64,000 nt of DNA from an uncultured Oscillospiraceae bacterium (GCA_947629775.1 CANRFA010000003.1:48098-112097), one strand, 5' to 3'; counted from the stretch's first letter, positions 3,951 through 47,204 are shown. Numbers and translations: made by a program. Notes: generated from the letters alone by a model not told the origin.

Positions 3951-3951
3951 C

Positions 3952-4287
3952 TCAGGCCCCGTGCTCCGGCACGACGGCGAAGAAGACGAGATCCGCCTGG
4001 CTGTCGTTGATCAGGCTGTGGGAGTGGCCCTTGGGGCAGTAGTGGCAGTCTCCGGCGGCCACCGCCTCGTACTCCCCGTCGATGAGGACCTTTCCGGTCC
4101 CGGCGAGGACGTAGATGATCTCGCTGTTCGTCTCGTGGAGATGATAGCCGATCGTGCTGCCCGGTTCCAGACGGCCGTGGAGGATGCGGTTCGTGCCGTC
4201 AAAGAACATCTTCGCCATGAGCGCGCCCTCGCCCCCCTTGAAGTTGGGGTTGGCGGTCTCCGGCATCTCGTTATAGTGGATAACCAT
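3952..4287 (-). CDS. Cupin domain protein
   Basis: HLH...EIIYVLAG and CPKGHSH cupin motifs. Confidence 0.85.
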   Translation of the reverse strand: MVIHYNEMPETANPNFKGGEGALMAKMFFDGTNRILHGRLEPGSTIGYHLHETNSEIIYVLAGTGKVLIDGEYEAVAAGDCHYCPKGHSHSLINDSQADLVFFAVVPEHGA

Positions 4288-15526: not shown

Positions 15527-15841
15527 TTACATGATCTTGCGGAACAGCGCCTTGAAGTCCTCCACGCTGGCCTCCTTGGGGTTGCCGGGGGCGCAGGCGT
15601 CCGCGGCGGCGGACTGGGCCAGGAACTCCAGATCCTCTTCCTTCAGCTTCTCCAGCTTCGTGGGGATCCCCACGTCCACGGACAGCTGACGGACGGCGTC
15701 GATGGCGGCCTTGCGGTAGGCGGCCTGGTCCATGCCGGTGGTATCCACGCCCATGGCCTCCGCGATATACTTGAACTTGTCGCCGGTGGCATCCTGGTTG
15801 TACTCCATGACGATGGGCAGCATCATGGCGCAGGCGACGCC
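15527..15841 (-). pseudogene. fucO: 3' fragment of an iron-containing alcohol dehydrogenase (lactaldehyde reductase-like), cut off by the prophage
   Basis: GVACAMMLPIVMEYN...DACAPGNP matches the Fe-ADH C-terminus. The codon before Gly (15842-15844) is TAA where the His of the HG motif is expected. Confidence 0.8.
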
Positions 15842-16391: not shown

Positions 16392-16714
16392 ATGCCATCG
16401 CTCCGCTCATTCGTAGTATAGGTCGTGTATGCGTTGACGGAAGCACAACGGGCGTCTCTACCTCTGCTCTCCAGATAGTGCCAGCATCTGACGGTTCCCT
16501 GTGTTTGCCGTCTCCTCCCTTGAGGTTTTTGCCTTCCGCTTCCGCACAGTTTATCATATATCTGATGTACCGGCGCAGGAGAAGCGCTGTTGGAAGGACA
16601 CACGGAGCCCAGGCCCGCAGAAGCGGGCACCGCCGTACAATCGCAATACACACGACCTCTTCGCCGTGATAATACAGAGCTGCATGATACGCAGGCCCCA
16701 GCCCGCAGAATCAT
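16388..16714 (-). CDS. Possible Cys-containing hypothetical protein
   Basis: CVSC and CDC; ATGA overlap with the next gene; lies downstream of the promoter at 16759. Confidence 0.35.
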   Translation of the reverse strand: MILRAGACVSCSSVLSRRRGRVYCDCTAVPASAGLGSVCPSNSASPAPVHQIYDKLCGSGRQKPQGRRRQTQGTVRCWHYLESRGRDARCASVNAYTTYTTNERSDGI

Positions 16715-16758
16715 GCCCGCTCTTCCCGGTGGGAAGGTACTTCCCACCCTACGGCAAC

Positions 16759-16787
16759 AGTATAGCTTCGAATTGGCAATTTGTCAA
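16759..16787 (-). promoter_or_regulatory. Promoter with box A operator overlapping the -35
   Basis: TTGACA-N17-TATACT; TTGGCAATTTGTCAA at 16773-16787; perfect TTGGCATTTTGCCAA at 16829-16843. Confidence 0.7.
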
Positions 16788-16887
16788 TCTGTAATATCAC
16801 AGTTTTCACGCCGTTCTCTCCTGCCTGATTGGCATTTTGCCAATACGGAAAGGCAGGTCTCCCCGCCTTTCCGTATTTCTCCCCCGG

Positions 16888-17067
16888 CTAAAAGCGCCCC
16901 TGCTCCCTGCACCAGTCCTGGTACTGCTCCTCCTCCCTGGCCCGGACGAGCTCCTCCAGCTCCGGCTCGTCCAGCCAGTTCATCTCCTCCTCCGTGCAGT
17001 ACATAGCCAGGTACCTGTACCGGCTGATGTACATGTCCAGCTCCATATCCGTCATCCTGAAGTTCAT
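16888..17067 (-). CDS. Small acidic phage protein (59 aa)
   Basis: Manual translation MNFRMTDMELDMYISRY...EQGRF; GAAAGGGG RBS. Confidence 0.65.
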   Translation of the reverse strand: MNFRMTDMELDMYISRYRYLAMYCTEEEMNWLDEPELEELVRAREEEQYQDWCREQGRF

Positions 17068-17103
17068 GTTACCATTCCCCTTTCTTTCAGACCCTGGGGC
17101 TGC

Positions 17104-17256
17104 TTACGCAGCCCCCGCCGGGATGTTGTAGGTCCAGGTGCAGCCCGCCATGAGGAGCGCCTCCTGGTAGTTGTCCAGGCTCTCCTGGTACTCCAGCTCG
17201 TCCCGTTCGCGCCTGTCCTCCAGGGTGGCTTCCAGGGTGTTGTAATCGTAGTTCAT
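17104..17256 (-). CDS. Small acidic cassette protein
   Basis: MNYDYNTLEATLEDRRERDELEY; conserved hairpin-RBS leader. Confidence 0.7.
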   Translation of the reverse strand: MNYDYNTLEATLEDRRERDELEYQESLDNYQEALLMAGCTWTYNIPAGAA

Positions 17257-17316
17257 TGTTACCTTCCTTTCTGCCCCGGTGGGGCGTCCGTGTTTCCTGT
17301 TTCCTTCGATGATGGG

Positions 17317-17345
17317 ATTATAACTCTGACCGCCCTTCCTGTCAA
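17317..17345 (-). promoter_or_regulatory. Cassette promoter
   Basis: GGGG-TTGACA-N17-TATAAT; box A at 17397-17411. Confidence 0.8.
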
Positions 17346-17444
17346 CCCCAAAAAGCAACTTTTTCAAAAAATTTTCAAGCGCTTATCGCCTTTTCAATGG
17401 CAATCCGCCAACCGCAGGGGTGGGTCCTGCCCGCCGGGGGTATG

Positions 17445-17681
17445 TCACAGGCCCGGCTTCAGCGCTACCCGGATCCCGAAGAACTGGAACCCGGCTCCGT
17501 CCATTTCCTCGCCGAACTCCCTGGCAATGGCGGGCAGGTCCGTTCCCGGCGCTACCAGAATCTCCACCAGGTCCCCTTCTGCCCGTACTCCCGTAAACTC
17601 CGTGGCCGGCGCTATCCACTGTATGTTGCGCACGACGTTTCCTGTATCGAGGAGCTTCTGAGCCAGCTCCATGCCGTTCAT
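17445..17681 (-). CDS. Phage hypothetical protein
   Basis: GGGAGG RBS; ORF track. Confidence 0.65.
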   Translation of the reverse strand: MNGMELAQKLLDTGNVVRNIQWIAPATEFTGVRAEGDLVEILVAPGTDLPAIAREFGEEMDGAGFQFFGIRVALKPGL

Positions 17682-17845
17682 ATCCGTTACCTCCCTGTAT
17701 GGCCGTCCGGTCCGCCGACGCCCCCAGGTCCTGGAGGCCCGGCGGTTCCCGTCTATTCAGCTGTCTGCTGTTTTCGGCCTCTTATGTTTCCACCCCTGGT
17801 CATTATGGCGAAGCCCCGTCGCCGTACAGCGACGGGGTGAAATGC

Positions 17846-18025
17846 TCAGACCCAGGAGATCTCCAGGTACGTGTTCTCGCCCACCTGGGTCCTGTAGTTC
17901 TCCTTGCCTTCCTTTTTCATCGCCCGGACGGCAGCCCGGAGAGCAGGGTCGCCCACTTTTTCGATCGCTTCCTTACGGAGGATCCGGCGGGTTTCCCCGT
18001 TCTCTGTCCAATAGTAACGAACCAT
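17846..18025 (-). CDS. Small basic phage protein (59 aa)
   Basis: Manual translation MVRYYWTENGETRRIL...LEISWV; promoter TTGATA-N17-TAGAAT at 18058-18086. Confidence 0.6.
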   Translation of the reverse strand: MVRYYWTENGETRRILRKEAIEKVGDPALRAAVRAMKKEGKENYRTQVGENTYLEISWV

Positions 18026-18169
18026 CTATGTTTCCATCCTTTCTTTTGTGTTCGTACATTCTACTCCGTTGGAGCTGATTTATCAACCCCATTTAAAAAT
18101 ATGTCTTCCGCCGGCCTGCGCAGCCCCCGCTGTTTTCACGCACCAGGGGCTGTCAGCCTGACGAGGCCA

Positions 18170-18394
18170 TTACATCTCCCGGATGGCTCTGGGGGTATGC
18201 ATACCAGCCTGGAGCATGGCCCTGAGTACTCTGTCCTGGTCTTCCGTGCAGAGGCCAAGGGCTGCCAGGTTCTCCCGGACAGAGCAGGAAAAGCAGACCT
18301 CTTCGCCGGTAACCCGGCCTCTGACGGTAGGACCCCAGGTGTAATAGCCACACCTGGGGCACTGCCAGAAGGTGGAGATGCGAGGTTCAGCCAT
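18170..18394 (-). CDS. Small zinc-finger-like phage protein
   Basis: CPRC...CFSC; coupled to the GGCT gene. Confidence 0.65.
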   Translation of the reverse strand: MAEPRISTFWQCPRCGYYTWGPTVRGRVTGEEVCFSCSVRENLAALGLCTEDQDRVLRAMLQAGMHTPRAIREM

Positions 18395-18851
18395 TGACTG
18401 CCACCCCCAGATCTCTTCCTCTTTCCCCCATATGCTTGAAGGAGTGCTCCACGGCCTTCCAGATGGCGTCCGGGTTGAATCCCATGTTGCGATACCCCTC
18501 CAGGCAGACAGCTACGTATCCCCGGCTGGGCGGTGCGATCTCCCGGTCCTCGTGCATGATATAGGCGAAGCAGTGCAGCTTGCCTACCCGGATATCCTGT
18601 TTGTAGTAGAACCGGGGGTAGCCCTCGTACCGGTCCAGGTTCCGCTCATCCTCCTCCGTAACCTGCCAGATGGCGACCGGAACCCGCCCGTCCCGCTGGC
18701 GCTCGATGGTCAGATAGCTGCCCGTCATGCTCCCCCGGAACCGCAGGGTCCAGCCCCGCAGGGTAGCCCCCCGGATCAGCCTCGCCCCCGGGCACCGGTA
18801 GGCCATCTGCTCCAGGTTCAGGTTGCTTCCGTATGCGATATAGTATTTCAT
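18387..18851 (-). CDS. Gamma-glutamylcyclotransferase (AIG2-like) family protein
   Basis: YIAYGSNL, RCPGA and LDRYEGYP motifs. Confidence 0.88.
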   Translation of the reverse strand: MKYYIAYGSNLNLEQMAYRCPGARLIRGATLRGWTLRFRGSMTGSYLTIERQRDGRVPVAIWQVTEEDERNLDRYEGYPRFYYKQDIRVGKLHCFAYIMHEDREIAPPSRGYVAVCLEGYRNMGFNPDAIWKAVEHSFKHMGERGRDLGVAVNG

Positions 18852-18906
18852 TGTTACCTTCCTTTCTCCCCCGCACCGGGGGCGTCCCTTCGTTTTTGAC
18901 GATGTG

Positions 18907-18935
18907 ATTATAACTCCATCAGCGTTATCTGTCAA
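18907..18935 (-). promoter_or_regulatory. Cassette promoter
   Basis: GGGG-TTGACA-N17-TATAAT; box A at 18985-18999. Confidence 0.8.
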
Positions 18936-19035
18936 CCCCGTTTGTGGATTTTTTGAAAAAAGTTTTTTGCCCTTTCCGTTTCCGCTGGCGGATTGCCAAC
19001 CCGGAGGCGTGATGTCTCCGGGTTGGCAGGGTATC

Positions 19036-19371
19036 TCAGAGGTTCCGGATAGAAGCCATGTAGTTCCGGTTCTTTTCCATGAGGAAGTTGTACCGCTCCC
19101 GGAAGGCGGGCGCCAGGGGGTGGTTGATGCGCTCCAGGGTCCGGGTCATCTTGTACTGGGACAGGTACCAGTAGGCGTAGGAGCCTCCCGTGATGAAATC
19201 CGGGATGATCCAGGTGGAGACGAACTCGCCCGCCGGGTCCGCCTTGGCGAGCCTGTAGAAGTCCCGCTGGTATTGGGTGGTCCCCCGGTAGTTCGTGGAG
19301 CCCCAGGGGCCGTCCGGGTACTCCTTCAACTCCTTGCTCCTCATTTCCCGGCTGATGTCGTAGGCCTTCAT
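19036..19371 (-). CDS. Cassette protein, paralogue of 29706-30065
   Basis: Shares the KMT..LE...HPLAPAFR.RYN motif. Confidence 0.75.
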   Translation of the reverse strand: MKAYDISREMRSKELKEYPDGPWGSTNYRGTTQYQRDFYRLAKADPAGEFVSTWIIPDFITGGSYAYWYLSQYKMTRTLERINHPLAPAFRERYNFLMEKNRNYMASIRNL

Positions 19372-19434
19372 ATTGTTACCGTCCTTTCTGCCCCCTTAAG
19401 GGGCGGTCCGTGTTTCCCTTCGTTTGATAATGGG

Positions 19435-19463
19435 ATTATACCTCTGAAGGCTGTTTCTGTCAA
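19435..19463 (-). promoter_or_regulatory. Cassette promoter
   Basis: TTGACA-N17-TATAAT; box B variant at 19484-19502; perfect box A at 19516-19530. Confidence 0.8.
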
Positions 19464-19657
19464 CCCGGTTCCGTAACTTTTTTCTATGAATCTTTTGCAT
19501 AGGTTTCTACCCGCTTTGGCAACTCGCCAACCCCCGAGGAGATCGCAGGCCTGCCCATCCTCCTGGGATTTATCGGAAAACCGTCCGTGACCCTCCGATA
19601 AACTGCCGGGCCTGGGTGTGACTGCCACCAGGTCCGGAACGATCCAGTACTGGGCCC

Positions 19658-19696
19658 CCGGCGTGCCGACGCTTCCAGATGCTCCCAATCCTGACT
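19658..19696 (+). repeat. 39-bp inverted repeat, left copy
   Basis: 34 of 39 bases match the reverse complement of 26165-26203 by manual alignment. Confidence 0.8.
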
Positions 19697-19879
19697 GATA
19701 CGGTCCATCTCCAGTTCCTGGATGGGGGTTACTGGCAGTATCTCCGCAGACACCCAGGGCTGGACCCCGGCGTCGCAGCGCTTCCAGTATTTGTAACTGA
19801 TTGCAGTTAAACCCTTTTTCTCGGGAGAGGGTCCAGGAATGGGTGTTGATGGGTTATTACCAACCAGAACCCATCGATT

Positions 19880-20465
19880 GGTGATACTGGAGGGATTGTA
19901 AGTAGCACCCATATAGCTCTGTTACTGGAGATATTCCATGATAATACCGGTTATGGGTGTACATGGACAATGTATAATATGGCTCCAGTCATGGGTTATC
20001 CTGGCTTTGATAGGTTTTCAACCCTGTTCTGGAGGTTACTGGACCATATGTAAATCAGATTGGAATATGGGTTGAACTGGAGCCATTGTAAATCAGGTCG
20101 CTTTCTGGGTGACACTGGAGAGAATGGAAATTCGGAAAGAATACGGGTTATGCTGGAGTCAATGGAAATCAGGTGACAATATGGGTAGAGCTGGCCTGAA
20201 TGTCATCAGCCTCCGGATTCGTTTTATCCTGGGTATCCTGGTATTCCAACCCATCAACGGGTGTTTACAGCTATCCTGGGTTTATAACCCATTATCGGAC
20301 CTTTATAGCCGTATTGGGCGTAATACCCATTATCGGGTTCTCGACCCATCACCGGGTGATTATAGCCATTTTGGGTTTGTAACCCATCACCGGGTTCCCA
20401 TGGCTGTTTTGGGTCTGCAACCCATTAACGGGTGATTATAGCCATCTTGGGTTGGATACCCATAT
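19880..20465. repeat. Degenerate 38-bp tandem array
   Basis: CTGGAG-like motif at 19887, 19925, 19963 ... 20229 in 38-bp steps, then about five 38-bp units containing TGGGT-N5-ACCCA. Confidence 0.75.
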
Positions 20466-20582
20466 TGAAAGCGGGTTGGGTGGACTGTCAGAAAGGCCCA
20501 TTTTCAGGGGCGATGGGTGTGAGCGGACGAACTGTAAATCGGACCCATCCAAAAGGCGGATGGGTTTATCTGGACAACGTGT

Positions 20583-20610
20583 AAGGGGGACCCAAGCGGG
20601 TCCCCCTTTT
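20583..20610. terminator. Intrinsic terminator downstream of the amidoligase
   Basis: GGGGGACCC/GGGTCCCCC stem flanked by AA and TTTT. Confidence 0.6.
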
Positions 20611-20645
20611 GTCGTTCCTGTTTTGTCCCCCCCTAGGGGGCTTCC

Positions 20646-21584
20646 TTACATGGAAGCCGCCTGGGTCTGCTGGAGGGAAATGGTGGGCAGGTTCCGGGTC
20701 ATGTGGTACATGGCGTTCTTAAAATCCTCCCCTTCGAACCCGTACCGCCGGAGCCACGCCCGCATGGTATCCCGGGGGCGGTTCGTGGTACAGGGGCTGG
20801 GCGTGGTATTGCGGGCGTATACGCTACCGCATACCATAGCAAGGGAAAACAGCACCCACGCCTTTACCATGCCCGCATGGAGCCCGTTTTTCTTGCCGTT
20901 CCCGGGTTCCTCAAAGTTGAACAGCCGGAACTCAATGGTTCCTTTTGTGAAAAGGGCGTGGAGGTTAACCATATGGTAACGGCTGGGATTGTAGTGTGCG
21001 GTCCGGGGCGTGTAGTGGTAGTTGGCGTACCACAAGTCGCTCACTTCTGCCAGGGACTGGGGGAAGTCCTTGTTCATACCCTCCAGGAAGTCCCTGTCCG
21101 CCCGGGCACAGTAGGTCATCCGGCTTTCCGGAATTCCGATGGCAGTAACTAACAGTTCCTCGTGGCACGCCATCGTATTGGAGAGGTTGCGAATGTCAGT
21201 TGGTCCCAGGTTTTTCCCGTCAATGTGAACGTGTACCCCGCAGCCGTTGGAGGCATAGGACTGCGCCCCCGCGCCCCGGAGGGCACGGATGACTTTCTGG
21301 AGGGTATCCATATCCTGGAGGTACAGGGGAGGCGTTGCCATTTCGCAGCCCCCGCTGTAATCGAGGTCGTGGAGGCTTGCGTCAGACATGAAGCTCCACT
21401 CGCGCCCCTGGGGGTCCGTCACCGCCCACCGGTCGTAGCTGGGTCCCGCATAGCGGACGGTCCCGCCCAACACGTCCCGGGCGACGTTTGCAGCCTTGTC
21501 CCGGGCGATGCCCGTCATTTCAATTTCCACGCCATAGGTGCGGTCCAGCATATCACGCTGGATTTTCATGGAGAGGTTCGTCAT
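20646..21584 (-). CDS. Putative amidoligase (Amidoligase_2 / COOH-NH2 ligase type)
   Basis: YGVEIEM, SDASL, CEMATPPL, CGVHVHI and KGTIEFRLF. Confidence 0.88.
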   Translation of the reverse strand: MTNLSMKIQRDMLDRTYGVEIEMTGIARDKAANVARDVLGGTVRYAGPSYDRWAVTDPQGREWSFMSDASLHDLDYSGGCEMATPPLYLQDMDTLQKVIRALRGAGAQSYASNGCGVHVHIDGKNLGPTDIRNLSNTMACHEELLVTAIGIPESRMTYCARADRDFLEGMNKDFPQSLAEVSDLWYANYHYTPRTAHYNPSRYHMVNLHALFTKGTIEFRLFNFEEPGNGKKNGLHAGMVKAWVLFSLAMVCGSVYARNTTPSPCTTNRPRDTMRAWLRRYGFEGEDFKNAMYHMTRNLPTISLQQTQAASM

Positions 21585-21643
21585 TGTTGCCATTCCTTTC
21601 TGCCCCCGTGGGGGGCGGTCCGTGTTCCCTGTTTACGTTGTAC

Positions 21644-21672
21644 ATTGTAACTCCGTCCGGCTTTCTTGTCAA
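21644..21672 (-). promoter_or_regulatory. Cassette promoter (amidoligase)
   Basis: GGGGG-TTGACA-N17-TACAAT. Confidence 0.8.
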
Positions 21673-21763
21673 CCCCCTTTTATAAGTTTTTTCAACTTTT
21701 TTACCGGAACGTTGACGCCCGCCGGGGTCTTGGGGGGCTTGTGTTCCCCCCTTGACTGTCTAC

Positions 21764-21792
21764 ATTCTAACTCGCACCGCCTTTTCTGTCAA
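21764..21792 (-). promoter_or_regulatory. Second cassette promoter with no ORF of its own
   Basis: TTGACA-N17-TAGAAT; box B at 21811-21831. Confidence 0.75.
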
Positions 21793-22137
21793 CCCCAAAT
21801 GATAACTTTTTTCATGCAACTTCTGCATGAATTCGGGGGTTTCTATCGATTCCATGCATATATGAACGCCGGGGCCTGGTCCGGGGCTTAAATTACCATA
21901 AACTTGTAAAAATGGGGGGGCGGGGTCCCGACGCTTCCAGTATCACCCATTTTGGGCATAGTTACCATTTGTCCATCAACACCCATACGGTCCGTTTCCA
22001 CCCAAATGGGTTCTTCTTCCGATTTTCCATGTATCTGACATGGCAGCTATCACCCATGGGCGCTCCACCCATTTTCCATGGAACTGACATGGGTGTTTTC
22101 GGTAATCTCCAGCCCGCTGTCAGTTTTCCGTTATTCT

Positions 22138-22809
22138 CCATTGGGTCTGTTGCCCATGGACCATAACGTTAAACGACCCAGGAACCTCCATTGGGTTTCT
22201 GTCCCATGGATCATACCGTCACTAAACCCAGCTTTGCCCAATGGGTTCATAACCCATGGACCTTACAGTCAGACAACCCATCCTCCTCCAATGGGTTTAC
22301 AACCCATGGAGCATATCGTGAAACGACCCAGGTTTCTCCACTGGGTCTGTTGCCCATGGACCGTACCGTCAGGCAACCCAGGAACCTCCATTGGCTCTAC
22401 AACCCATGGGTCGTATCGGGATTTAACCCATCATCCTCCATTGGATTTACAACCCATGGGTTGTACCGTAAAACGATCCATCCTCCTCCAATGGGTCCCT
22501 GACCCATGGGTCGTGCCGTTAAGTAACCCAGAAACACCCACTGGGCCTCCAACCCATGGGTCGTAGCGGGATTCAACCCAGGTTTGCCCAATGGATTTAC
22601 AACCCATGGACCGTATCGTCAGACAACCCAGGTTTCCCCAATGGGTGCCTGACCCATGGGTTGTACCGTAAAACGACCCAGGAACCTCCATTGGGTCTAC
22701 GACCCATGGACCATAGCGTTAAACAACCCAGCTTTCCCCAATGGGTCTACAACCCATGGAGCGTACCGCCATTCAACCCATCATCCTCCAATGGGTTCCT
22801 GACCCATGG
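22138..22809. repeat. 50-bp tandem array, block 1 (13 full units plus a partial unit)
   Basis: CCAWTGG every 50 bp from 22138 to 22788; unit CCAWTGGGT-N5-ACCCATGG...ACCCA. Confidence 0.95.
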
Positions 22810-23145
22810 ACCTTGAACCCATTTTGCCGAAAACTGACATGGACCAATTATCCATGGGCCTTCCTCCCATTTTCCATCAAACTGACATGGAAAATCGGTC
22901 CATGGGTGATACAGCCAATCTCCAGAGAACTGACATGGCTATATCCCCCATGGGTTGTTAACCCAATCTCCAGGAAAATGACATGGGTATTTCCTCCATG
23001 GACCTTATCCCCAATTTCCATCAAACTGACATGGCGAAACAACCCATGGGTGAACGACCCATTTCCCATCGAACTGACATGTAAGATAAACCCATGGGTT
23101 ATATCGGTAATTCCCATCGAACTGACATGGGTGCAAGGCCCATGG
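22804..23145. repeat. 48-bp tandem array (7 units)
   Basis: CCATGG at 22804, 22852, 22900, 22948, 22996, 23044, 23092 and 23140, with AACTGACATGG between. Confidence 0.95.
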
Positions 23146-23189
23146 AGTTTTTCGGTAATCTCCAGCCCGTTGCCAGTTTTCCAGTATCC

Positions 23190-23558
23190 TACATGGGTCT
23201 ACCGCCCATGGACCGTACCGTCATTCAACCCAGGTTCCTCCAATGGGTTTACAGCCCATGGACCATACAGACACATAACCCAGAAACCCCCATTGGGTTC
23301 ATAACCCATGGAGTGTACCGTCAGACGACCCAGAAAGCTCCATTGGGTCTATCGCCCATGGACCGTACCGTCAAACGGTCCAGGAACACCCATTGGGTTC
23401 ACTGCCCATGGAGCGTAAAGGAATCCATCCCAATACCACCCATTGGGTTTACAACCCATGGCCTGTATCGCCAAGCAACCCAGGAACACCCATTGGGTCT
23501 ATCACCCATGGGTCGGGATCCCATTTACCGAAAATTGTCATGGCCTGATTTTCCATGG
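23190..23558. repeat. 50-bp tandem array, block 2 (6 full units), then one 48-type unit
   Basis: Unit starts at 23190, 23240 ... 23490. Confidence 0.92.
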
Positions 23559-23799
23559 GTTATGGCTCCAGTCGCCCCGTGTTGCGGACCCTGTTTTTTG
23601 TTGGGTCGCATGGACAGTATTTCCTTTTCGGACCTTTTTATCAGACTTTCCACCAACTTACAATCGGTGGAATACGTTAAGCCCCGGCTGGAAAATCCTG
23701 GCCGGGGCGCCACCGCTGGGAATTGCTGGAGGTATTGCCTTTTGGGTCCGGTTCCCGCCCCGGGGGCGTATGCCCCGGGGGCGGGTTCCTGTTTCCGCT

Positions 23800-24048
23800 T
23801 TACCTGTAGTAGGTTCCGTGAATGTCCGCCATTTCTTCCATTAACTCAAAGGAGATGGGGGTATCTCCCAGTCCTGCCGTAAACGCCCATTCGTCCACGG
23901 CGCTGTAGATATCGTCCCTGTCGTATTCGTTTCCATGGATTTCCATCCATTCCAGCCTTTCCAACAGGTTGTTGAAGTCCTTTTCCGTTACGTACTTCTT
24001 TACCATTTTGGCGGCTTTCTTCCCCATTTTGCCCAAGTACTTTTTCAT
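23800..24048 (-). CDS. Cassette protein (VDEWA family)
   Basis: Conserved leader and RBS; ORF track. Confidence 0.7.
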   Translation of the reverse strand: MKKYLGKMGKKAAKMVKKYVTEKDFNNLLERLEWMEIHGNEYDRDDIYSAVDEWAFTAGLGDTPISFELMEEMADIHGTYYR

Positions 24049-24165
24049 TATATTTCATTCCTTTCTGCCCCTATGGGGCGTTCCCGTTACGTTATGGGGC
24101 GTTCCCGTTTCCCGTTTTGCCCCATGCCCGCCCCGGGGCGTATGCCCCGGGGCTATCCGTTTCTT

Positions 24166-24471
24166 TCAGATGTTGCACGGCATACAGCCGTCCCACAGCG
24201 CCCGCTCTTCCCGGTAGTCTTCCATTTCCTGGAGGATATCCCGGTAGGTATCCGTCATGGCGTCCGCCAACGTCCGGGCGATGTCAGTAGCTTCCAGCCC
24301 CATGTCGTCCGCCCATTCGTTCACGATATAGGCGACGTCCTCCTCGTCGTATTCGTGGGGGGCGTTTTCCACGTTGTACAGCCGGCGGTACAGGTACCCG
24401 GCGTTCCCGTTGTCCACGATGTCCCGCACGATAGCCCGCGCCCTGTTCATCATCCTGTTCATGTTCTTCAT
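24166..24471 (-). CDS. Acidic cassette protein (VNEWA family)
   Basis: Conserved leader; D/E-rich. Confidence 0.75.
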   Translation of the reverse strand: MKNMNRMMNRARAIVRDIVDNGNAGYLYRRLYNVENAPHEYDEEDVAYIVNEWADDMGLEATDIARTLADAMTDTYRDILQEMEDYREERALWDGCMPCNI

Positions 24472-24550
24472 TGTTTACCGTCCTTTCTGCCCCCTATGGG
24501 GCGTTCCCCCCGGAAAGGGGGGCGCTGTTTGTTTCCTGTTTACGTTGTAC

Positions 24551-24579
24551 ATTGTAACTCCACCCGGCCATTCTGTCAA
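24551..24579 (-). promoter_or_regulatory. Cassette promoter
   Basis: TTGACA-N17-TACAAT; box B at 24598-24618; box A at 24630-24644. Confidence 0.8.
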
Positions 24580-24687
24580 CCCTAAATGATAACTTTATTC
24601 ATGCAACTTTTTCATGAATTCCATTACCCGTGGCGTTTTGCCAACCCGTGCCCGTAAAGGCACGGGCTGGCATTTCCTGGAGGGGGC

Positions 24688-25077
24688 TTACGCTTCCCAG
24701 TATCTGGAGTCGTCCCCGTCCTCCTTGCTGTAAATTTCGTCCAGGTGCCATTCCAGTTCCTGGGCATCCCGGTTCCACTTCCTGGAAAGGGCGCCATACC
24801 CGGCGGACGCCAGCCACGTCGCCTGGGCATCCGTAAATTCCCAGACGGCTTTCACAAAAGCGGGGTCCCAACTGTCCAGCCCCTCTTCCGTGTAGTTCTG
24901 TCCGTCAAGGGCGCCGGGGTCCGTTTCCGCCATGCGGACGAAAATCCGGGGATACACTTCCCACACGAATTCGTCCTCCCGCCCCCTGTCGTGGAAAAAC
25001 CCGTGGCTGTTTTCCAGTACAGCGCCCCAGTCAATGGGGTCGAGGGCGTTCATGCCGTTCATGTTGATGGCGTTCAT
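24688..25077 (-). CDS. Acidic cassette protein
   Basis: Conserved leader; D/E/W-rich. Confidence 0.75.
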   Translation of the reverse strand: MNAINMNGMNALDPIDWGAVLENSHGFFHDRGREDEFVWEVYPRIFVRMAETDPGALDGQNYTEEGLDSWDPAFVKAVWEFTDAQATWLASAGYGALSRKWNRDAQELEWHLDEIYSKEDGDDSRYWEA

Positions 25078-25143
25078 TGTTTACCGTCCTTTCTGCCCCC
25101 GTGGGGGGCGTCCGTGGGGTTCCTGTTCCTGTTTACGTTGTAC

Positions 25144-25172
25144 ATTCTAACTCCGTCCTGCCATTCTGTCAA
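25144..25172 (-). promoter_or_regulatory. Cassette promoter
   Basis: GGGGG-TTGACA-N17-TAGAAT. Confidence 0.8.
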
Positions 25173-25425
25173 CCCCCTTTGCTAACTTTTTTCAAAAAAA
25201 TTTTCATGCGCATGCCCGTTGCCGTTGCCGGAACGGCAACTGACAAAAGCTGGACCGATAGGATCCGCCCTTCCATCCGCCCGTATTTTCCATTTACTTG
25301 GAATGGGTTCAATCTCCATGGACCGATTTTCCATGCCCTTTCGTTGGAAGCGCCTGCCATATATCCAGTAGCTGCCATGGTCCATCTGTCTGTCAGAATC
25401 GGCAGTTTCTGGAGGTCCATTTTCT

Positions 25426-25740
25426 ACCCATCAGGTCCATCAATTAACAACCCGATTTTCACCCATTAGGTCCAGCTTTTTACAACCCATTTCAGACCCA
25501 TCAGGCCCATCAACTGACATCCCATTTTGGACCCACCAGGTCCATCTATTAACAGTCCATTTTGGACCCGGATGGTCCATTTGCTGACAACCCATTTTCT
25601 ACCCATCCGGTCCATCAACTTACATCCCATTTTCCACCCATTGACTCCAGCTCCTTACAACCCTTTTTCGAGCCATCAGGTCCATCTATTAACAGTCCAT
25701 TTTTGCCCCATCAGGTCCACCTTCTGACAACCCACTTTTC
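25426..25740. repeat. 35-bp tandem array (9 units)
   Basis: Consensus ACCCATCAGGTCCATC..TTAACA.CCCATTTT.. repeated with an exact 35-bp period. Confidence 0.92.
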
Positions 25741-26164
25741 TTCCGAAAATACCATCTGATGTCATCCCAAAAAGGCCTATCTTCTCCAGTACCTGGGTGA
25801 CCCATTTTGGATACAGAATGTCCATCAAGTGGCAAAAGGTCCCTTCGATGGGAAATGCCAGTTCCCACCCCGCACACCCAGTAACCGGAATTTCCTCCGC
25901 CAAACTCCAGCCTCCGATTTTTTGGACATTTTACAATTAACTGACATTTCAGAAGAGCAAGCTGAAAATATCAGTTTCTGACAATCCCTCCGATTTTTAG
26001 CAAATTCCATCCTGCTCGAAAATACTCCAGCCATTTACAATTTCTCCGATTTTCCTCCAGTTTCCATCCATATAGCATCTTCTCCAGCAAGTGCCATTTC
26101 CTCCGCTACGGTCCATTCTCCAGGCCACTTGTAAACGCTCCAGAAACTGGGGGGTCCAGGCTGG

Positions 26165-26203
26165 AGTCATAATTGGAAGCAACTGGAAGCGTCGGTACGC
26201 CGG
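26165..26203 (-). repeat. 39-bp inverted repeat, right copy
   Basis: Reverse-complement match to 19658-19696. Confidence 0.8.
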
Positions 26204-26331
26204 CCCCCCAGAAACTCCAGTCCCTGGCAGCCCTGGAGTACATTTGCCCAGGCCCCGGATTCCGTTGGCGTTCTGCCAATATCTGCCTCGATTCATGCAA
26301 AAGATTCATGAATAAAAGTTGGCTTTTGGGG

Positions 26332-26360
26332 TTGACAGAAAAGCCCCGCAGAGTTAGAAT
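26332..26360 (+). promoter_or_regulatory. Cassette promoter
   Basis: TTTTGGGG-TTGACA-N17-TAGAAT; box A at 26265-26279; box B at 26292-26312. Confidence 0.82.
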
Positions 26361-26448
26361 ACCAACATCGAAAGGGAACACCCCTCCACCACGAACCGCC
26401 CCGCAGGGGCGGGCACGGACGCCCAAAGGGCAGAAAGGAAAGATAACA

Positions 26449-26703
26449 ATGTCCACCATCAACAAGCTCATGAACGCCATCCGCACCGCCACCACCGGCA
26501 TGAACGCCCACGACATCGCCCCCCTGGAGAACTACCTGGGCTACCTCGTGGAGGCTATCCACGGCGGGGACATGGAGCCCTGCGACGCCTACCTCCTGGC
26601 TGCGGAAGCCGTCAACGTGTGGGCGGATGACGTGAACGCCCCCACCGCCACCGTGGATACCATGGTGGACACCCTGGTGGCTACCGCCCTGACGCTTGCC
26701 TGA
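26449..26703 (+). CDS. Cassette protein (VNVWA family)
   Basis: Conserved leader; start MSTINK. Confidence 0.72.
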   Translation: MSTINKLMNAIRTATTGMNAHDIAPLENYLGYLVEAIHGGDMEPCDAYLLAAEAVNVWADDVNAPTATVDTMVDTLVATALTLA

Positions 26704-26865
26704 GCCGGGCAAGCCCCCGGGGGATTCCCCCCGGGGGACCCCTGCCGGGGCTGGCGGAGAATGCCGGAGGAATCTCCAGCATCTGCCAGGCCCGGCACGC
26801 CGGCCGGCAGCTCTTCCATCAAACGGAAGTATCAGCCGTTCTATGACAGAAAGGAAGTAACTGAC

Positions 26866-27162
26866 ATGCGACTTGTGTATTTGGATACCGTCCGGGATAA
26901 GGTATACGCCTGGGGTATCCGCTACCCCATCCCCATTGACGAGCTGGACCGCCTGTGGAAAGATGCCTATGAGCTGATGGATTCCATCGTCAGCAAGACC
27001 AGGAAATGGATCTGTGTGGAATCCCCCTGGGTATACGTTGACGAGGTAATGGGCTGCGTGAATCAATGGGGGCAAAGGAACAGCCTCAACGTAGAAGACA
27101 TTTCCCAGGAACTGGGTGACTATCTGGCAGACGCCCTGAACGCCCTGGAGTTTGTTTCCTGA
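26866..27162 (+). CDS. Cassette protein (VNQW family)
   Basis: AGAAAGGA RBS; start MRLVYLD. Confidence 0.68.
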   Translation: MRLVYLDTVRDKVYAWGIRYPIPIDELDRLWKDAYELMDSIVSKTRKWICVESPWVYVDEVMGCVNQWGQRNSLNVEDISQELGDYLADALNALEFVS

Positions 27163-27270
27163 CAGAATCATCCATCCCGTTGGCGGGTACAGCCCTCCAG
27201 GGATTGCCATCCCGCCATATCCTCCGAGAAGGCGCATGAAAATTTTTTCGAAGAAAGTTGCTTTTTGGGG

Positions 27271-27299
27271 TTGACAGACTAGCCAGTCAGAGTTAGAAT
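27271..27299 (+). promoter_or_regulatory. Cassette promoter
   Basis: TTGACA-N17-TAGAAT. Confidence 0.8.
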
Positions 27300-27357
27300 A
27301 CCATCATCGAAGGGAAAGACAGGGACGCCCCACAGGGGCAGAAAGGTAAGGTAATAT

Positions 27358-27603
27358 ATGGACGTGAATTGCAGGAAGATGTTCGCCTCCGCTGTGGAGA
27401 CCAGCCTGAAGGGGCTGGACGTCCCCAGCCAGGCCGTCAACGAGCTGGTGGATACCATGTACCGGACGGTGGAGATGGGCGAAATGGAGGGCTGGGGGGA
27501 CCTGGAAATGTTCCGGCGGATCCGCTGGAGCGCCAGGGACTGGCAGGAAGGCCAGGGACTGTATATCCCCTGGCTGGAGGATGATATGGCTGCCCTCGTG
27601 TAA
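27358..27603 (+). CDS. Acidic cassette protein
   Basis: Conserved leader. Confidence 0.72.
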   Translation: MDVNCRKMFASAVETSLKGLDVPSQAVNELVDTMYRTVEMGEMEGWGDLEMFRRIRWSARDWQEGQGLYIPWLEDDMAALV

Positions 27604-27714
27604 AGCCCCCCCAAAGCCACCCCCGGTAACGACCCCGGTATACGCCGGGGGTGGCAATCCGCCATCCATGCCTGAAACTTTCTGAAATTTTTCAAAGAAA
27701 GTTACCTTTTGGAG

Positions 27715-27743
27715 TTGACAAAAGCGGAGCCTGGAGCTATAAT
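27715..27743 (+). promoter_or_regulatory. Cassette promoter
   Basis: TTGACA-N17-TATAAT; box A at 27651-27665. Confidence 0.8.
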
Positions 27744-27808
27744 CACCAGCGTAAACAGGAAGGAAACAGACGGACCGCCCCCCTGCGGGGCAGAAAGGAA
27801 CGGTAACA

Positions 27809-28222
27809 ATGAAGAACGAAAACAGACTGGACAGCCTCTTTGAGGAACTGGTACCCGCCAGCGGAAAGGCGGACAGCCTCGCCGGGGAGCTCGTCCGGGC
27901 GACCTCCCGGATTGGGTTCCGTTTCCTGAATGACGGAGACCAGCTGGGGCGGGGCTACGGGCGGGAAACGTGCAACCCCGCCGGGCGCTTTATCCTGGCG
28001 AAGACGCCCCGTGAAATTGGCGACCTCGTAGCTGCCATGTGGTACACGGAGGACGAAAACGCCTACGAGGCGCAGCTGGATACCCTGGTGGGCAAAGTTG
28101 CGGAGTACGTGGAAACGAACCCCGGCCTGCGCAACACGCCCACGGAGGATATGTGGAGCTTCCGGGATACCTGGGAGGACGTGGACGAAGACGAATACGA
28201 GGACGGGGACGAGGACTGGTAA
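27809..28222 (+). CDS. Phage/MGE hypothetical protein with an acidic tail
   Basis: VPASGKADSLAGELVRA..RIGFRFLNDGD; ends DVDEDEYEDGDEDW. Confidence 0.78.
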   Translation: MKNENRLDSLFEELVPASGKADSLAGELVRATSRIGFRFLNDGDQLGRGYGRETCNPAGRFILAKTPREIGDLVAAMWYTEDENAYEAQLDTLVGKVAEYVETNPGLRNTPTEDMWSFRDTWEDVDEDEYEDGDEDW

Positions 28223-28361
28223 GCACTGGATCCCCCGTTCCGTCAGGGAAAGCCCCCTGCCATCCCCGGCACAAGGATACACAGCCCGCCGGGGATGGCA
28301 ATCTGCCAATATCAGCCAGGATCCATGAAAAAGATTCATGAATAAAAGTTAGCGTTTGGGG

Positions 28362-28390
28362 TTGACAGGATTATCCCCCGGAGTTATAAT
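28362..28390 (+). promoter_or_regulatory. Cassette promoter
   Basis: TTGACA-N17-TATAAT; box A at 28295-28309; box B at 28322-28342. Confidence 0.82.
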
Positions 28391-28453
28391 TCCATTGTAA
28401 ACGAAAGGGAAACAAACGGACCGCCCCAACGGGCAGAAAGGCAAGGTAAAACC

Positions 28454-28780
28454 ATGGAGAAGTTCAACAGCTACACGACCAGCCACATCGTCCCCTGCGT
28501 GAAGGAAAACGCCCCCGGCATGGACGGCGACGACCGGCAGCTCCTCTACCACGAACTGGACCGCCTCGTGGAGTACTTCATCGAGAACGACCCCCCGGAG
28601 GATGATATCCGCCCCTGCGTTATCGAAACCTTGAACGAGTGCGTGGACATGAACGACCCGGACGTTATGAACGCCCTGACGGACAAGCTGGAGGATGCCT
28701 TTATGGATATCCTCTACGAGGAGAAAATGTGGCGCCTCGAAGCCCGCCTGTGGCACGGACCCAATCCCTGGGGCATCTGA
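28454..28780 (+). CDS. Acidic cassette protein
   Basis: Conserved leader; D/E-rich. Confidence 0.75.
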   Translation: MEKFNSYTTSHIVPCVKENAPGMDGDDRQLLYHELDRLVEYFIENDPPEDDIRPCVIETLNECVDMNDPDVMNALTDKLEDAFMDILYEEKMWRLEARLWHGPNPWGI

Positions 28781-29018
28781 GAGCCCCTGGGATCCCCCCG
28801 GGAGAACAGCCTCCCGGGGGCGGGAACTGGAGGCTGCTGTGATATGGCCCATTTCCTGCCAGAATCGGCAGCCCGGCCAGGTATTTCCAGCCCCTCCCCC
28901 TGGGACAACGGCAGGATGGTACGAAGCTTCCGAAAATCGGCAGTTCCGGATGCTGCTGTCAATCCGCTCTATCCGCTAACTTCCCGAAAATTTTTTCTGA
29001 AAAAGTTTACTTTTGGGG

Positions 29019-29047
29019 TTGACAGGAAAACGGTTCAGAGTTATAAT
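29019..29047 (+). promoter_or_regulatory. Cassette promoter
   Basis: TTGACA-N17-TATAAT. Confidence 0.82.
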
Positions 29048-29115
29048 CCTATCATCAACAGGGAACAGGAAACACGGACCGCCCCGCAGACGGGGCAGAA
29101 AGGACGGTAACAAAT

Positions 29116-29442
29116 ATGAACATCGCCAATATCAACTGGGACGCCATCTGCACCCCCTCCGCCCTGTACGGCAAGGAGTGGACCTACCTGCGGGGGGAGG
29201 CATGGAAGAAGGACTTCCTGGACGAGGTAGAGAAATACAACAGCATGGGCAAAGCCCCCTACCACGTCACCCCAGTGGACACCGGATTCCGCAGCGACAA
29301 CGTCTTCGTTGTTTCCCGTATCTGGAACCTCGTCCTGAAGCAGGCGGAGCTCCTGTATGAAAACGGATACGACGACCTTGGCGAAATCTGGATGGACGAC
29401 GCCGTAGGGCTGGAGTCCTACATGGATACCTTCGAGGACTGA
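29116..29442 (+). CDS. Acidic cassette protein
   Basis: Conserved leader. Confidence 0.75.
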   Translation: MNIANINWDAICTPSALYGKEWTYLRGEAWKKDFLDEVEKYNSMGKAPYHVTPVDTGFRSDNVFVVSRIWNLVLKQAELLYENGYDDLGEIWMDDAVGLESYMDTFED

Positions 29443-29610
29443 TCGAAGGTATCCCCTTCCAGGGGCCGGGACCCATTTCCTGGGGGGCCAGGGACGCCGG
29501 CCCCCACTCCGGAAAATGGCGGGGCCTGTTGCGGGCCCGGATGTTGCCGTTTTGCCATTCATCCCAGAAACCTATGCAAAAGATTCATGAATGAAAGTTG
29601 CTTTTTGGGG

Positions 29611-29639
29611 TTGACAGAATTAGCCCCCAGAGTTAGAAT
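29611..29639 (+). promoter_or_regulatory. Cassette promoter
   Basis: TTGACA-N17-TAGAAT; box A at 29544-29558; box B at 29571-29591. Confidence 0.82.
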
Positions 29640-29705
29640 AGCACCATCAAAAGAGAGCAGGAAACAAGCGGACCGCCCCACAGGGGCAGAAAGGTAAGGT
29701 AAACA

Positions 29706-30065
29706 ATGGACAGGAACATCTACCCCATCTGGAACGCAATGGCTACCCGCAGTGACGAGACCCAGGGGAACATGTACGGGCGGTACGAAGGGACCCCCCA
29801 GTTCCTGGAGGACTTCCGCCACCTTGCGGAAGTGGACCTCAAGGAGGGCGACGGCTTCTACGTGAAAACGTGGATGCAGCCCGCCATCCCCGGGCTGTGG
29901 ACCCTGGACCAGCTCAAAATGACCCACATCCTGGAGGGCATGGGACACCCCCTCGCCCCCGCCTTCCGGCAGCGCTACAACGAAACCCTGGACCTCCTCC
30001 GGGTCCGGCTCCGGGAATACCGGAGCCTCCTGGAGTCCCGGCGCAGCCGGAAGCACGCAGCCTGA
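29706..30065 (+). CDS. Cassette protein, paralogue of 19036-19371
   Basis: Shared HPLAPAFR.RYN motif. Confidence 0.75.
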   Translation: MDRNIYPIWNAMATRSDETQGNMYGRYEGTPQFLEDFRHLAEVDLKEGDGFYVKTWMQPAIPGLWTLDQLKMTHILEGMGHPLAPAFRQRYNETLDLLRVRLREYRSLLESRRSRKHAA

Positions 30066-30377
30066 GCCAATACCCCCCCGCCCGGCGGAGCCCTGCCGGG
30101 CGGGGTTGCCGTTTTGCCATCGTGGATGCAGATTCATGCAGAAGATTCATGGATTTAATTTACATTCGGGGGATACTCAGCCAGATCCAGGAAGGTGGAG
30201 GATCCTCCGATAATTCCCATCCGCCGGCAGATGGGTTATGTTTCGTGTACTGTTAAATGCTTCCAGCGCTGCGACGCCGGCCCCCCTGGCTCCTGTTTTC
30301 CCCGAAACTGCATGATGGGCTGTCGGGGCGGGCAGGCGGGCATGAAAAAAGGGAGGTGGATGTCCACCTCCCCGTTA

Positions 30378-46878: not shown

Positions 46879-47044
46879 AAGCGCTCTCCCACCTTTCACA
46901 GGTCCACCAGCAGCTTACCTTACCGGCTCCAAAGGGAGTCTCTACCACAGATTCCGGGCTGTCCGGGTTCGTACACTCGCTCCCCAGCCAGAAATACCAC
47001 CGGCATTCATCGCAGATCATGTCGTCCCTGCCGATTTTGTCCAT
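46871..47044 (-). CDS. Cys-rich micro-protein, paralogue A
   Basis: CDECRWY..SECTNPDS..WWTCERWE. Confidence 0.6.
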   Translation of the reverse strand: MDKIGRDDMICDECRWYFWLGSECTNPDSPESVVETPFGAGKVSCWWTCERWESAYE

Positions 47045-47204
47045 CGCTATCCTCCCACTTATCACAGGTCCACCAGAAACACACCTTGCCGGTCCCACAG
47101 GGCGTCTCAGCGCCGGATCTCTGGCTGTCCGGATTCGTACACTCGCTGCCAGGCTGAAAATACCACCTGCACTCCTCACAGATCGTGTCAGCTCTGCCGT
47201 CCAT
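47007..47204 (-). CDS. Cys-rich micro-protein, paralogue B
   Basis: CEECRWY..SECTNPDS..WWTCDKWE. Confidence 0.6.
   Translation of the reverse strand: MDGRADTICEECRWYFQPGSECTNPDSQRSGAETPCGTGKVCFWWTCDKWEDSDGQNRQGRHDLR

Follow-up and report, generated by a model that had tools for sequence, protein, structure and literature searches.

Repeat arrays at the locus share one word

We analysed a 64,000-nucleotide (nt) stretch of DNA from an uncultured Oscillospiraceae bacterium (GCA_947629775.1, CANRFA010000003.1:48098-112097; hereafter the window), focusing on a field of tandem repeat arrays inside an integrated phage. Repeats were called with Tandem Repeats Finder, and their units were then read in register. 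The program recovered every array listed in the first-pass annotation of this DNA: a 38-mer at 20038-20453, a 50-mer at 22136-22812 (13.5 copies) and 23193-23511 (6.4 copies), a 48-mer at 22879-23159, and a 35-mer at 25417-25740 (9.2 copies). The results showed a field of five arrays with four periods in ~4 kb of gene-free DNA, holding ~110 ACCCA/TGGGT half-sites (Table 1). Units were ~70-80% identical to one another, and higher-order periods of 100/150 and 70/105/140 bp were present (150 bp in 50-mer array A). The whole field was bracketed by a 47-nt inverted repeat, and each of the three copies of this element stood between an array and an outward-facing promoter. A second word, CTGGAG/CTCCAG, occupied the outer parts of the field in mirror orientation, in the first part of the 38-mer array (38a) and in a tract beyond the 35-mer array; the 200 bp with the lowest G+C content in the region (25900-26099, 37-42% G+C) fall within this tract. 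Phage genomes leave little room for spare DNA, so 4 kb that lack genes but keep conserved words in an integrated prophage call for an explanation.

ACCCA or its complement was common to the five consensus units, with 10 copies in all. In 5000 composition-preserving shuffles, a common 5-mer arose in 0.16%, never with as many as 10 copies. Exact TGGGT-N5-ACCCA occurred 16 times in the whole 3.07-Mb assembly, always at window 20277-23494, and no copy of the full site with up to 3 mismatches was found elsewhere in the prophage. ACCCAT was counted 46 times in 3.06 kb of arrays versus 13 times in the other 98 kb of the prophage, a ~105-fold enrichment, and together with ATGGGT it had 76 copies in the field versus 616 in the 2.97-Mb host part. 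The shared word could be extended to (C)AACCCA(T); CAACCCA had 21 copies in the arrays against a single one in the rest of the prophage. These counts bear out the first-pass annotation, which had proposed that arrays of different periods share TGGGT/ACCCA, that the palindrome TGGGT-N5-ACCCA forms the core of both the 50-mer and the second half of the 38-mer, and that the 35-mer uses direct half-sites. The palindrome was seen in both places (in the 38-mer, in the register of its second part, 38b), and each 35-mer unit contained three same-strand words, (A/G/T)CCCAT or TCCAT, 9-11 bp apart. That annotation had also named shuffled arrays of the same composition as the measure that could refute a shared motif; the motif was enriched far beyond composition, and a scan of prophage and host chromosome placed every exact palindrome inside the field.

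The same arrays were present in contigs from other metagenome samples, and samples ERZ27249608 and ERZ27249609 contain the phage. One contig (L015) covered all arrays with 1 mismatch in 7720 bp, and another (L153), spanning the 38-, 48- and 50-mer arrays, had 3 mismatches in 5386 bp; all these mismatches lay outside the arrays, and array copy numbers were identical in the three assemblies. Since two independent contigs carry the same copy numbers with no array mismatch, the arrays are not an assembly artefact.

Conserved blocks point to recognition of double-stranded DNA

The 50-mer consensus was TCCAwTGGGT-N5-rCCCATGG-..GTAnCG..A..-AACCCA(G/T). It contains a full palindrome, CCA-w-TGGGT-N5-(A/G)CCCATGG, whose left arm has one extra base, and a third site, AACCCA(G/T), in each unit; some units also carry an everted palindrome, ACCCATGGGT. 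Across the field, half-sites stood 5-24 bp apart and were inverted with a 5-bp gap, everted (ACCCATGGGT; ACCCA-N4-CGGGT) or direct with a spacing of 9-11 bp (35-mer). Sixteen of the 50 columns of the 50-mer were invariant and fell in three blocks, and CCCATGG was intact in 19 of 19 units, while other columns departed from the consensus in up to 11 of the 19. Neither that number of invariant columns nor a run of seven arose in any of 20,000 uniform-substitution simulations. In the palindrome arms, no pair was changed on both sides, and departures in the left arm left CCCATGG in the right arm unchanged. Because the words are conserved without compensatory changes between the arms, the pattern, one of conserved words and not of conserved base pairs, points to recognition of double-stranded DNA, not of a folded RNA or a single strand.

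This pattern bears on two alternatives, both of which we consider improbable. The first is that the arrays are transcribed by read-through from cassette promoters and act as RNA, as hairpin arrays or as a sponge for an RNA-binding protein or ribosomes. Cassettes on the minus strand, upstream of the arrays, have no U-tailed terminators on that strand, the 50-mer array gave an RNA fold z-score of -8.8, and ACCCAU and CUCCAG appear on the outward strand of either arm. Any array of palindromes, however, is expected to have a low fold energy; there were no compensatory changes and the right arm was invariant in sequence, no consensus promoter points into the arrays, and the best Rfam score was 23.5 bits against a gathering score of 57. 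Neither the covariation nor the Rfam match that marks a structured RNA family was thus found. The second alternative, no better placed than the first, is functionless satellite DNA, in which a part of the prophage that is dispensable would have expanded through slippage or unequal crossing-over. The higher-order periods fit this idea, as do the restriction of the arrays to this phage in the collections searched and their absence from a relative (described below). Against it stand the strongly non-uniform substitutions, matched in 0 of 20,000 simulations, the recurrence of one word across arrays of different units and periods, the identical copy numbers in three assemblies, and the cost of 4 kb of junk in a packaged genome.

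We consider it probable, from these features of the sequence, that the field is a set of binding sites for one sequence-specific DNA-binding protein. A single such protein would recognise (A)ACCCA(T) whether the copies are inverted, everted or direct, which can be likened to the behaviour of iteron-type initiators and omega/ParR-type proteins. The first-pass annotation had suggested that one phage protein may coat several kb here. The non-coding arrays, the shared half-site and the site-specific conservation fit such a predicted binding field; the centromere role attached to it found little support, as discussed below.

Table 1. Features of the array field and its surroundings (window coordinates)
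Feature	Position	Strand	Description
47-nt inverted repeat, left arm	19650-19696		83% match to right arm; holds GACGCTTCCAG
38-mer array, part a (38a)	19812-20229	+	~11 units; ATGGGT and (A)CTGGAG on one strand
38-mer array, part b (38b)	20230-20470		~6 units TGGGT-N5-ACCCA(T)-N4-CGGGT; inverted plus everted half-sites
Degenerate tail of 38-mer array	20471-20575		scattered TGGGT/ACCCA words
Hairpin ending the degenerate tail	20583-20608		terminator-like on plus strand
Third copy of 47-nt repeat element	21915-21945		
Two 48-mer units	21945-22136		ACCCATTTTCCAT..AACTGACATGG..CCATGGG, plus linker TTTTCGGTAATCTCCAGCCCG
50-mer array A	22137-22812		13.5 units; CCA-w-TGGGT-N5-rCCCATGG ... GTAnCG ... 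AACCCA(G/T)
48-mer block	22813-23188		seven units and second copy of linker TTTTCGGTAATCTCCAGCCCG
50-mer array B	23189-23511		6.4 units
Terminal 48-mer unit, single	23512-23575		
35-mer array	25411-25760	+	~10 units, half-sites all direct: AACCCATTTTC-nACCCATCAGGTCCATC
CTCCAG / CTCCGATTTT-rich tract	25780-26220	+	mirror of the CTGGAG words in 38a
47-nt inverted repeat, right arm	26165-26211		
Perfect consensus promoter	19435-19463	-	TTGACA-17-TATAAT; upstream of basic 111-aa ORFan 19036-19371
Sister cassette promoters	21644-21672, 21764-21792, 24551-24579, 25144-25172	-	
Sister cassette promoter	26332-26360	+	
Amidoligase_2 gene	20646-21593	-	between 38-mer and 48/50-mer arrays
Three small acidic ORFan genes	23800-24048, 24166-24471, 24688-25077	-	between 48/50-mer and 35-mer arrays

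Several other classes of element were tried and rejected. Coding repeats were dismissed on the periods (50, 48, 38 and 35), a flat G+C profile at third codon positions, and the lack of any reading frame spanning an array; stop-codon recoding of the phage gave no clear gain in open frames. The intergenic region of the CI/Cro genes uses TTCAAGAA-type repeats and has no ACCCA, which does not fit CI/Cro operators. A Chi-like word, or one of the restriction or bacteriophage exclusion (BREX) type, was set aside on a mild under-representation of ACCCAT (observed/expected 0.70 in the phage and 0.80 in the host) and no skew. Repetitive extragenic palindromic or mosaic elements (REP/BIME) were discounted because no copy of the site lies outside the field and no Y1_Tnp was among the matches. 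An array of clustered regularly interspaced short palindromic repeats (CRISPR), or a mimic of its repeat, was rejected on whole units repeating at ~70-80% identity and an unrelated host repeat, GTCACAATTCCTGGGAGAGGTAGAGTAA. The host CRISPR array with this repeat is itself split across two contig ends (C23:1-170 and C91:8150-8312).

The arrays lie in the accessory module of an integrated prophage

The G+C content was ~62-71% in the host part of the window and ~57% from ~15.85 kb, and the lower-G+C element extends to the end of the contig (C3). Window 15527-15826 encodes the C-terminal half of an iron-containing alcohol dehydrogenase (Fe-ADH), beginning GVACAMM. The last 60 nt of the contig encode ...GLGIAHSMAHTLGAVYDTPHGV, and the contig ends ~60 nt into host DNA. 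The junctions were placed at window ~15842 and at L003:15768-15885 (C3:~167925), within one Fe-ADH gene (between ...TPHGV and ACAMM...). A core, GGCGTC, is common to both ends, and the phage arms TTGCACAAATTAACATAA / CCTTGTGTCAATTTGTGCAA form an attP-type inverted repeat. Since both junctions fall in one Fe-ADH gene with a shared core and attP-type arms, the element is, as judged from its sequence, a ~104-kb integrated temperate phage.

The right end of the prophage carries a large serine recombinase, an HTH_3 repressor-like gene and a divergent Cro-like gene, together with SLT, a PD-(D/E)XK exonuclease, RecT, a DUF6291 replisome-organiser-like gene, an IstB/DnaC-like loader, SSB and RusA. Tail fibres, an endolysin, a portal, a capsid and a T4-type terminase are also encoded. 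The large terminase (L002:16751-18622) aligns to its relatives in two pieces, with a best identity of 53%, which suggests an insertion such as an intein or homing element. A 166-bp unit, present 1.8 times with 78% identity, lies at window 46886-47189 in a small-gene region of the prophage.

The arrays are 4-10 kb from the left junction, inside an accessory module of ~16 near-identical promoter cassettes (window 16700-30100) that face left up to ~25.2 kb and right from 26.3 kb. Each cassette comprises, in order, an AT-rich element with TTCATG-N9-CATGAA, a TTGACA-17-TAnAAT promoter, a leader GC hairpin, a ribosome-binding site and a small ORFan. Similar units, the PeSL promoter/stem-loop cassettes, shuffle genes in T4-type phages (PMC2839356, PMC4122927). 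Apart from an amidoligase and a GGACT gene (18387-18935), the cassette genes here are ORFans that are small and for the most part acidic. The best relatives of the amidoligase were at most 49% identical, and no relative of the locus was found with the amidoligase. In the Heliusvirales phage NatCom_991 (PV036413.1), the GGACT and Amidoligase_2 genes abut directly with no array between them, whereas here the 38-mer array, a promoter and an ORFan separate the two. Basic ORFan paralogues, one per module arm (19036-19371 and 29706-30065), are 44% identical and share HPLAPAFR(E/Q)RYN. Neither paralogue has a further relative among 1.8 billion representative proteins, and for the 111-amino-acid (aa) protein none turned up in 5.8 billion sequences either. 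Its AlphaFold2 model was poor (predicted local distance difference test score, pLDDT, 52), too poor for a fold search, and the left copy has a stop codon at window 19168 in sample ERZ27249609. Two other basic proteins, of 59 and 74 aa, are encoded at window 17846-18025 and 18170-18394.

This setting raises another explanation, in which the arrays are an operator or architectural platform for the cassette module, coated or looped by a protein of the module so as to silence, insulate or activate its promoters. Omega of pSM19035 and KorB of RK2, each of which works on several promoters, are the models, and the basic 111/119-aa ORFan pair or a 74-aa zinc-ribbon protein are the candidate binders. 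After each array block the order is the same: the GACGCTTCCAG element, the TTCATG-N9-CATGAA palindrome, and a TTGACA-17-TAnAAT promoter firing away (P19463, P21792 and P26332). The basic ORFan is the first gene after the perfect promoter P19463, and its only relative, the paralogue, closes the opposite arm. The related prophage has neither arrays nor cassettes, and there is a precedent in omega, which reads 7-bp heptads of mixed orientation upstream of promoters (PMC9499535). Yet the adjacency of arrays and promoters is a weak argument, since any insert in a cassette slot must lie upstream of the promoter that follows. Arrays are lacking from ~12 other cassettes, and within cassettes the half-site does not keep to a set position. 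No helix-turn-helix (HTH) or ribbon-helix-helix (RHH) regulator was detected among 59 proteins of the region, the low pLDDT of the basic ORFan and its stop codon in one sample's contig also count against this explanation, and the arrays are far larger than any operator. We therefore regard such a platform as rather unlikely, though it deserves more weight than the RNA or satellite explanations.

A related prophage lacks the arrays

The nearest relative of the phage was a ~110-kb prophage in a complete genome of the same genus (L141-L147, G414:C1:1.68-1.79 Mb). Its portal is 61% identical, and its structural, RecT and DnaC modules are syntenic, while its initiator and accessory regions differ. 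This prophage had no tandem arrays, no cassette battery and no homologue of the replisome organiser. Because it has neither arrays nor cassettes, the field is not part of the core life cycle of the lineage.

Relatives of the arrays were also sought more widely. None was found by a pattern scan of IMG/VR, among the matches listed for GTDB genome contigs, in two JGI metagenome scans, or by blastn in GenBank phages and PLSDB plasmids, and 401 genomes of the host family gave one chance match besides the window's own. A giant-virus metagenome-assembled genome (MAG) contig (L004, IMGVR_UViG_GVMAG-S-1074334-30_000001) has CCCATGG at 50-bp spacing twice, 250 bp apart, at 3636-3992; this is probably an unrelated repeat. 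The proteins flanking the arrays are ORFans or have only distant relatives.

A partition centromere is poorly supported

The first-pass annotation read the arrays as a candidate centromere-like system and found no ParA, ParM, TubZ or Rep gene in the window. The latter observation holds across the Pfam matches of the whole prophage. The ParA-type ATPase family PF01656 (CbiA/ParA) had 10 matches in the genome and 0 on the prophage, and StbA/ParM, Tubulin/TubZ and Rep_3 were absent from the Pfam matches of ~130 prophage proteins (one list being the best 25 of 43 families). The rest of the prophage, which the annotation had proposed to search for ParA/ParB, ParM/ParR, TubZ/TubR or an initiator, gave a mixed result: no ParA, ParM, TubZ or Rep_3 was found, while three ParB_N proteins and the DUF6291 organiser-like gene were. 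The ParB_N proteins (C3:151-154 kb) adjoin TerS/TerL, two of them are fused to methylases, and at least one has a counterpart in the related prophage without arrays.

A partition centromere would require that a binding protein coats the arrays and that a nucleoside triphosphatase (NTPase) segregates an extrachromosomal form of the phage. The layout has some likeness to known centromeres. F sopC has 12 copies of a 43-bp unit, each with a 16-bp inverted repeat (PMC3177203), and the 50-mer array (13.5 + 6.4 units) resembles it, both being tandem arrays of ~43-50-bp units in ~12-14 copies with one inverted repeat each. This resemblance is one of form only: unlike F sopC/SopB, the field lies in an integrated replicon that lacks a sopA/sopB-like operon, its units are ~70-80% identical and not near-identical, and extra direct half-sites and other arrays use the same word. 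Clustered repeats bearing inverted repeats, one palindrome per 50-mer unit, are thus the only hallmark of ParABS/Sop systems seen here; a ParA + ParB operon and an extrachromosomal low-copy replicon are lacking.

The mixed-orientation short repeats also resemble parS of pSM19035, where omega, an RHH ParB, reads a short word, direct and inverted, at several places upstream of promoters (PMC9499535). The heptads of pSM19035 are contiguous, at least 4 in number and without a gap, whereas the half-sites here are 5-24 bp apart and no run of at least 4 contiguous 7-bp repeats with an RHH binder is present; no RHH protein or delta-like ParA was found. An actin- or tubulin-like NTPase gene adjoining the array, as in type II/III partition, is likewise absent from the Pfam matches of the prophage proteins. 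Because the phage is integrated, with a serine integrase and both junctions identified, and has no partition NTPase, a centromere would be without evident use. Together with the terminase-adjacent position of the ParB_N proteins, two of them methylase fusions, and a related phage without arrays, these results leave the centromere-like system poorly supported, and we judge it very improbable, the least probable of the explanations weighed.

The replisome organiser is a candidate binder

The organiser gene (DUF6291) lies at C3:160378-161454 and contains a tandem repeat at C3:160772-161110 (L003:8675-9013). This repeat has 24 copies of ACTGG at exact 10-bp spacing, with periods of 10, 30 and 60, and codes for an SGxQSQPV linker. 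Because the period of 10 is not a multiple of 3 and lies inside a coding region, selection appears to act on the DNA of the repeat. The repeat can be compared with the iterons that lie within lambda O or SPP1 gene 38, and it is probably the phage origin, placed within the initiator gene. Of 11 further DUF6291 genes from the host family, 5 likewise carry short in-gene repeats, and the N-domain of the organiser had no relative in 80 genomes of the genus.

Two words are shared by the organiser repeat and the arrays. When the whole genome was scanned in 400-bp windows, more than 5 ACCCA/TGGGT were found only in the arrays (26, 19, 17, 16, 11 and 8) and in the organiser repeat (10). Of the 66 genomic copies of ACCCAnTGG, the left palindrome arm, 20 fell in the arrays and 8 in the 340-bp organiser repeat; the remaining 97 kb of the prophage had 3 and the host 35. 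The organiser repeat and the arrays are 10.8-16.8 kb apart on the circular map, across attP. Tentatively, the arrays would be a second binding locus of the phage's own replisome organiser, with the 10-bp-phased, iteron-like array in its gene taken as the primary origin. Organiser bound at the arrays may arrest forks, or the arrays may act as an initiator sink or as a second origin. We regard this oriR-like locus as the leading candidate among the specific roles, though still doubtful and well short of the general prediction that one protein binds the field; both the organiser as binder and the binding itself are inferred, and so is any effect on forks, initiator or origin use.

The closest model is phage SPP1, in which gp38 binds oriL inside gene 38 and oriR in a long intergenic segment with three morons, ~13 kb from oriL on the circle; fork stalling at gp38-oriR is proposed to trigger the theta-to-sigma (concatemeric) switch, which is processed by an exonuclease, an annealing recombinase, SSB and a resolvase (PMC6316719, PMC3485210). 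Here, as in SPP1, candidate sites lie within the initiator gene and a second candidate set in a long non-coding, moron-bearing segment (~13 kb away in SPP1, 10.8-16.8 kb here), the direct repeats adjoin a less G+C-rich stretch, and an exonuclease, an annealing recombinase, SSB, a Holliday-junction resolvase and a helicase loader are encoded. All of these (RecT, the PD-(D/E)XK exonuclease, SSB, RusA and the IstB/DnaC-like loader) speak for the organiser, as does the related prophage, which lacks the arrays and also an organiser homologue. Unlike SPP1, this phage is temperate and integrated, its organiser is a DUF6291 protein for which homology to gp38 is not established, the two loci share ACCCA/TGGGT and ACCCAnTGG only while their core repeats differ, and the field, with five arrays and four periods, is ~10 times larger than oriR.

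Several results weigh against the organiser as the binder. The core of its in-gene repeat is ACTGG, not ACCCA/CCCATGG, and ACTGG was not clearly enriched in the arrays. When all array-enriched 6- and 7-mers were used, the organiser repeat ranked 9th of 33 tandem arrays, was no outlier and was not among the top windows. Because this broad test was negative, the link rests on two words chosen after looking. In the reverse direction, organiser 8-mers gave 4-8 near-matches per 400 bp at C3:67046-69946, a stretch that takes in the 38-mer array and the first part of the 48/50-mer block, against 4-5 for reversed-word controls. None of 10 other DUF6291 prophage regions had a distant field comparable to the arrays, and a second cluster of in-gene organiser words, sought in 11 DUF6291 prophage regions, gave nothing clearly above reversed-word controls. 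More than 100 half-sites over 4 kb is far above any described origin. DnaA boxes were at chance level and the AT-rich patch is modest, so that the combination typical of iteron and lambdoid origins, an adjacent or containing initiator gene with an AT-rich element and DnaA boxes, was not found at the arrays.

In iteron replicons with control arrays (P1 oriR/incA and F incC), one initiator, as monomer and as dimer, reads direct repeats and inverted half-repeats, and extra arrays act as sinks or handcuffing sites. The field is like these replicons in having direct repeats and inverted half-repeats of one word. It is unlike them in the absence of a Rep_3-type initiator, in unit lengths and site number, and in the integrated state.

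A sink effect need not involve the organiser. The field could be decoy DNA that titrates a DNA-binding protein not required by the phage in cis: a rival mobile element's initiator, some host factor, or the initiator of the phage itself, in the last case setting an induction threshold; we hold this to be improbable. One form of it would be a phage-borne DNA sponge, several kb of non-coding decoy sites soaking up a DNA-binding protein such as the phage's own or a rival's initiator or regulator, and we give it a slim chance. A sponge for the phage's own initiator would give a sharp threshold between leaky expression and committed replication. As for a rival, contig C41 (L222 6521-9700) has a Rep-like gene (HTH_36 x2, DnaD_N, DUF6017), and a RecD-like helicase is encoded on the same contig. 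The 1.5-kb non-coding region upstream of the Rep-like gene is the genome's richest in array-type 6-mers outside the arrays (19 per 400 bp versus a mean of 2.4) and contains a palindrome, TTACACCCATTTT-N8-AAAATGGGTATAA, at L222 9097-9130. A decoy would agree with the confinement of every palindromic site of the genome to the field and the 76 ACCCAT/ATGGGT there versus 616 in the host part, with the lack of a binder gene adjoining the field, with neighbours that are small acidic proteins resembling anti-defence proteins, with a field dispensable in the lineage, and with the C41 region and its palindrome ACCCATTTT-N8-AAAATGGGT. The C41 similarity is, however, compositional; ACCCATTTT occurs only 14 times in the genome against 7 for its reversed control, and a host factor without palindromic sites in the host genome is unlikely. 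To our knowledge, no multi-kb DNA decoy has been described in a phage.

Significance of the field

If the arrays are a second locus of the replisome organiser, the fork-arrest model of SPP1 would extend to a very different, temperate gut phage, and the ~110 half-sites would be an extreme natural example of the initiator sinks or roadblocks that time replication. If they are instead a decoy or a promoter-silencing platform, they would represent a new kind of cis element in an accessory, probably anti-defence, phage region. The conserved blocks (CCA-w-TGGGT, CCCATGG and AACCCA) provide a precise probe for a DNA-binding protein in a region of the phage where nearly every gene is an ORFan.

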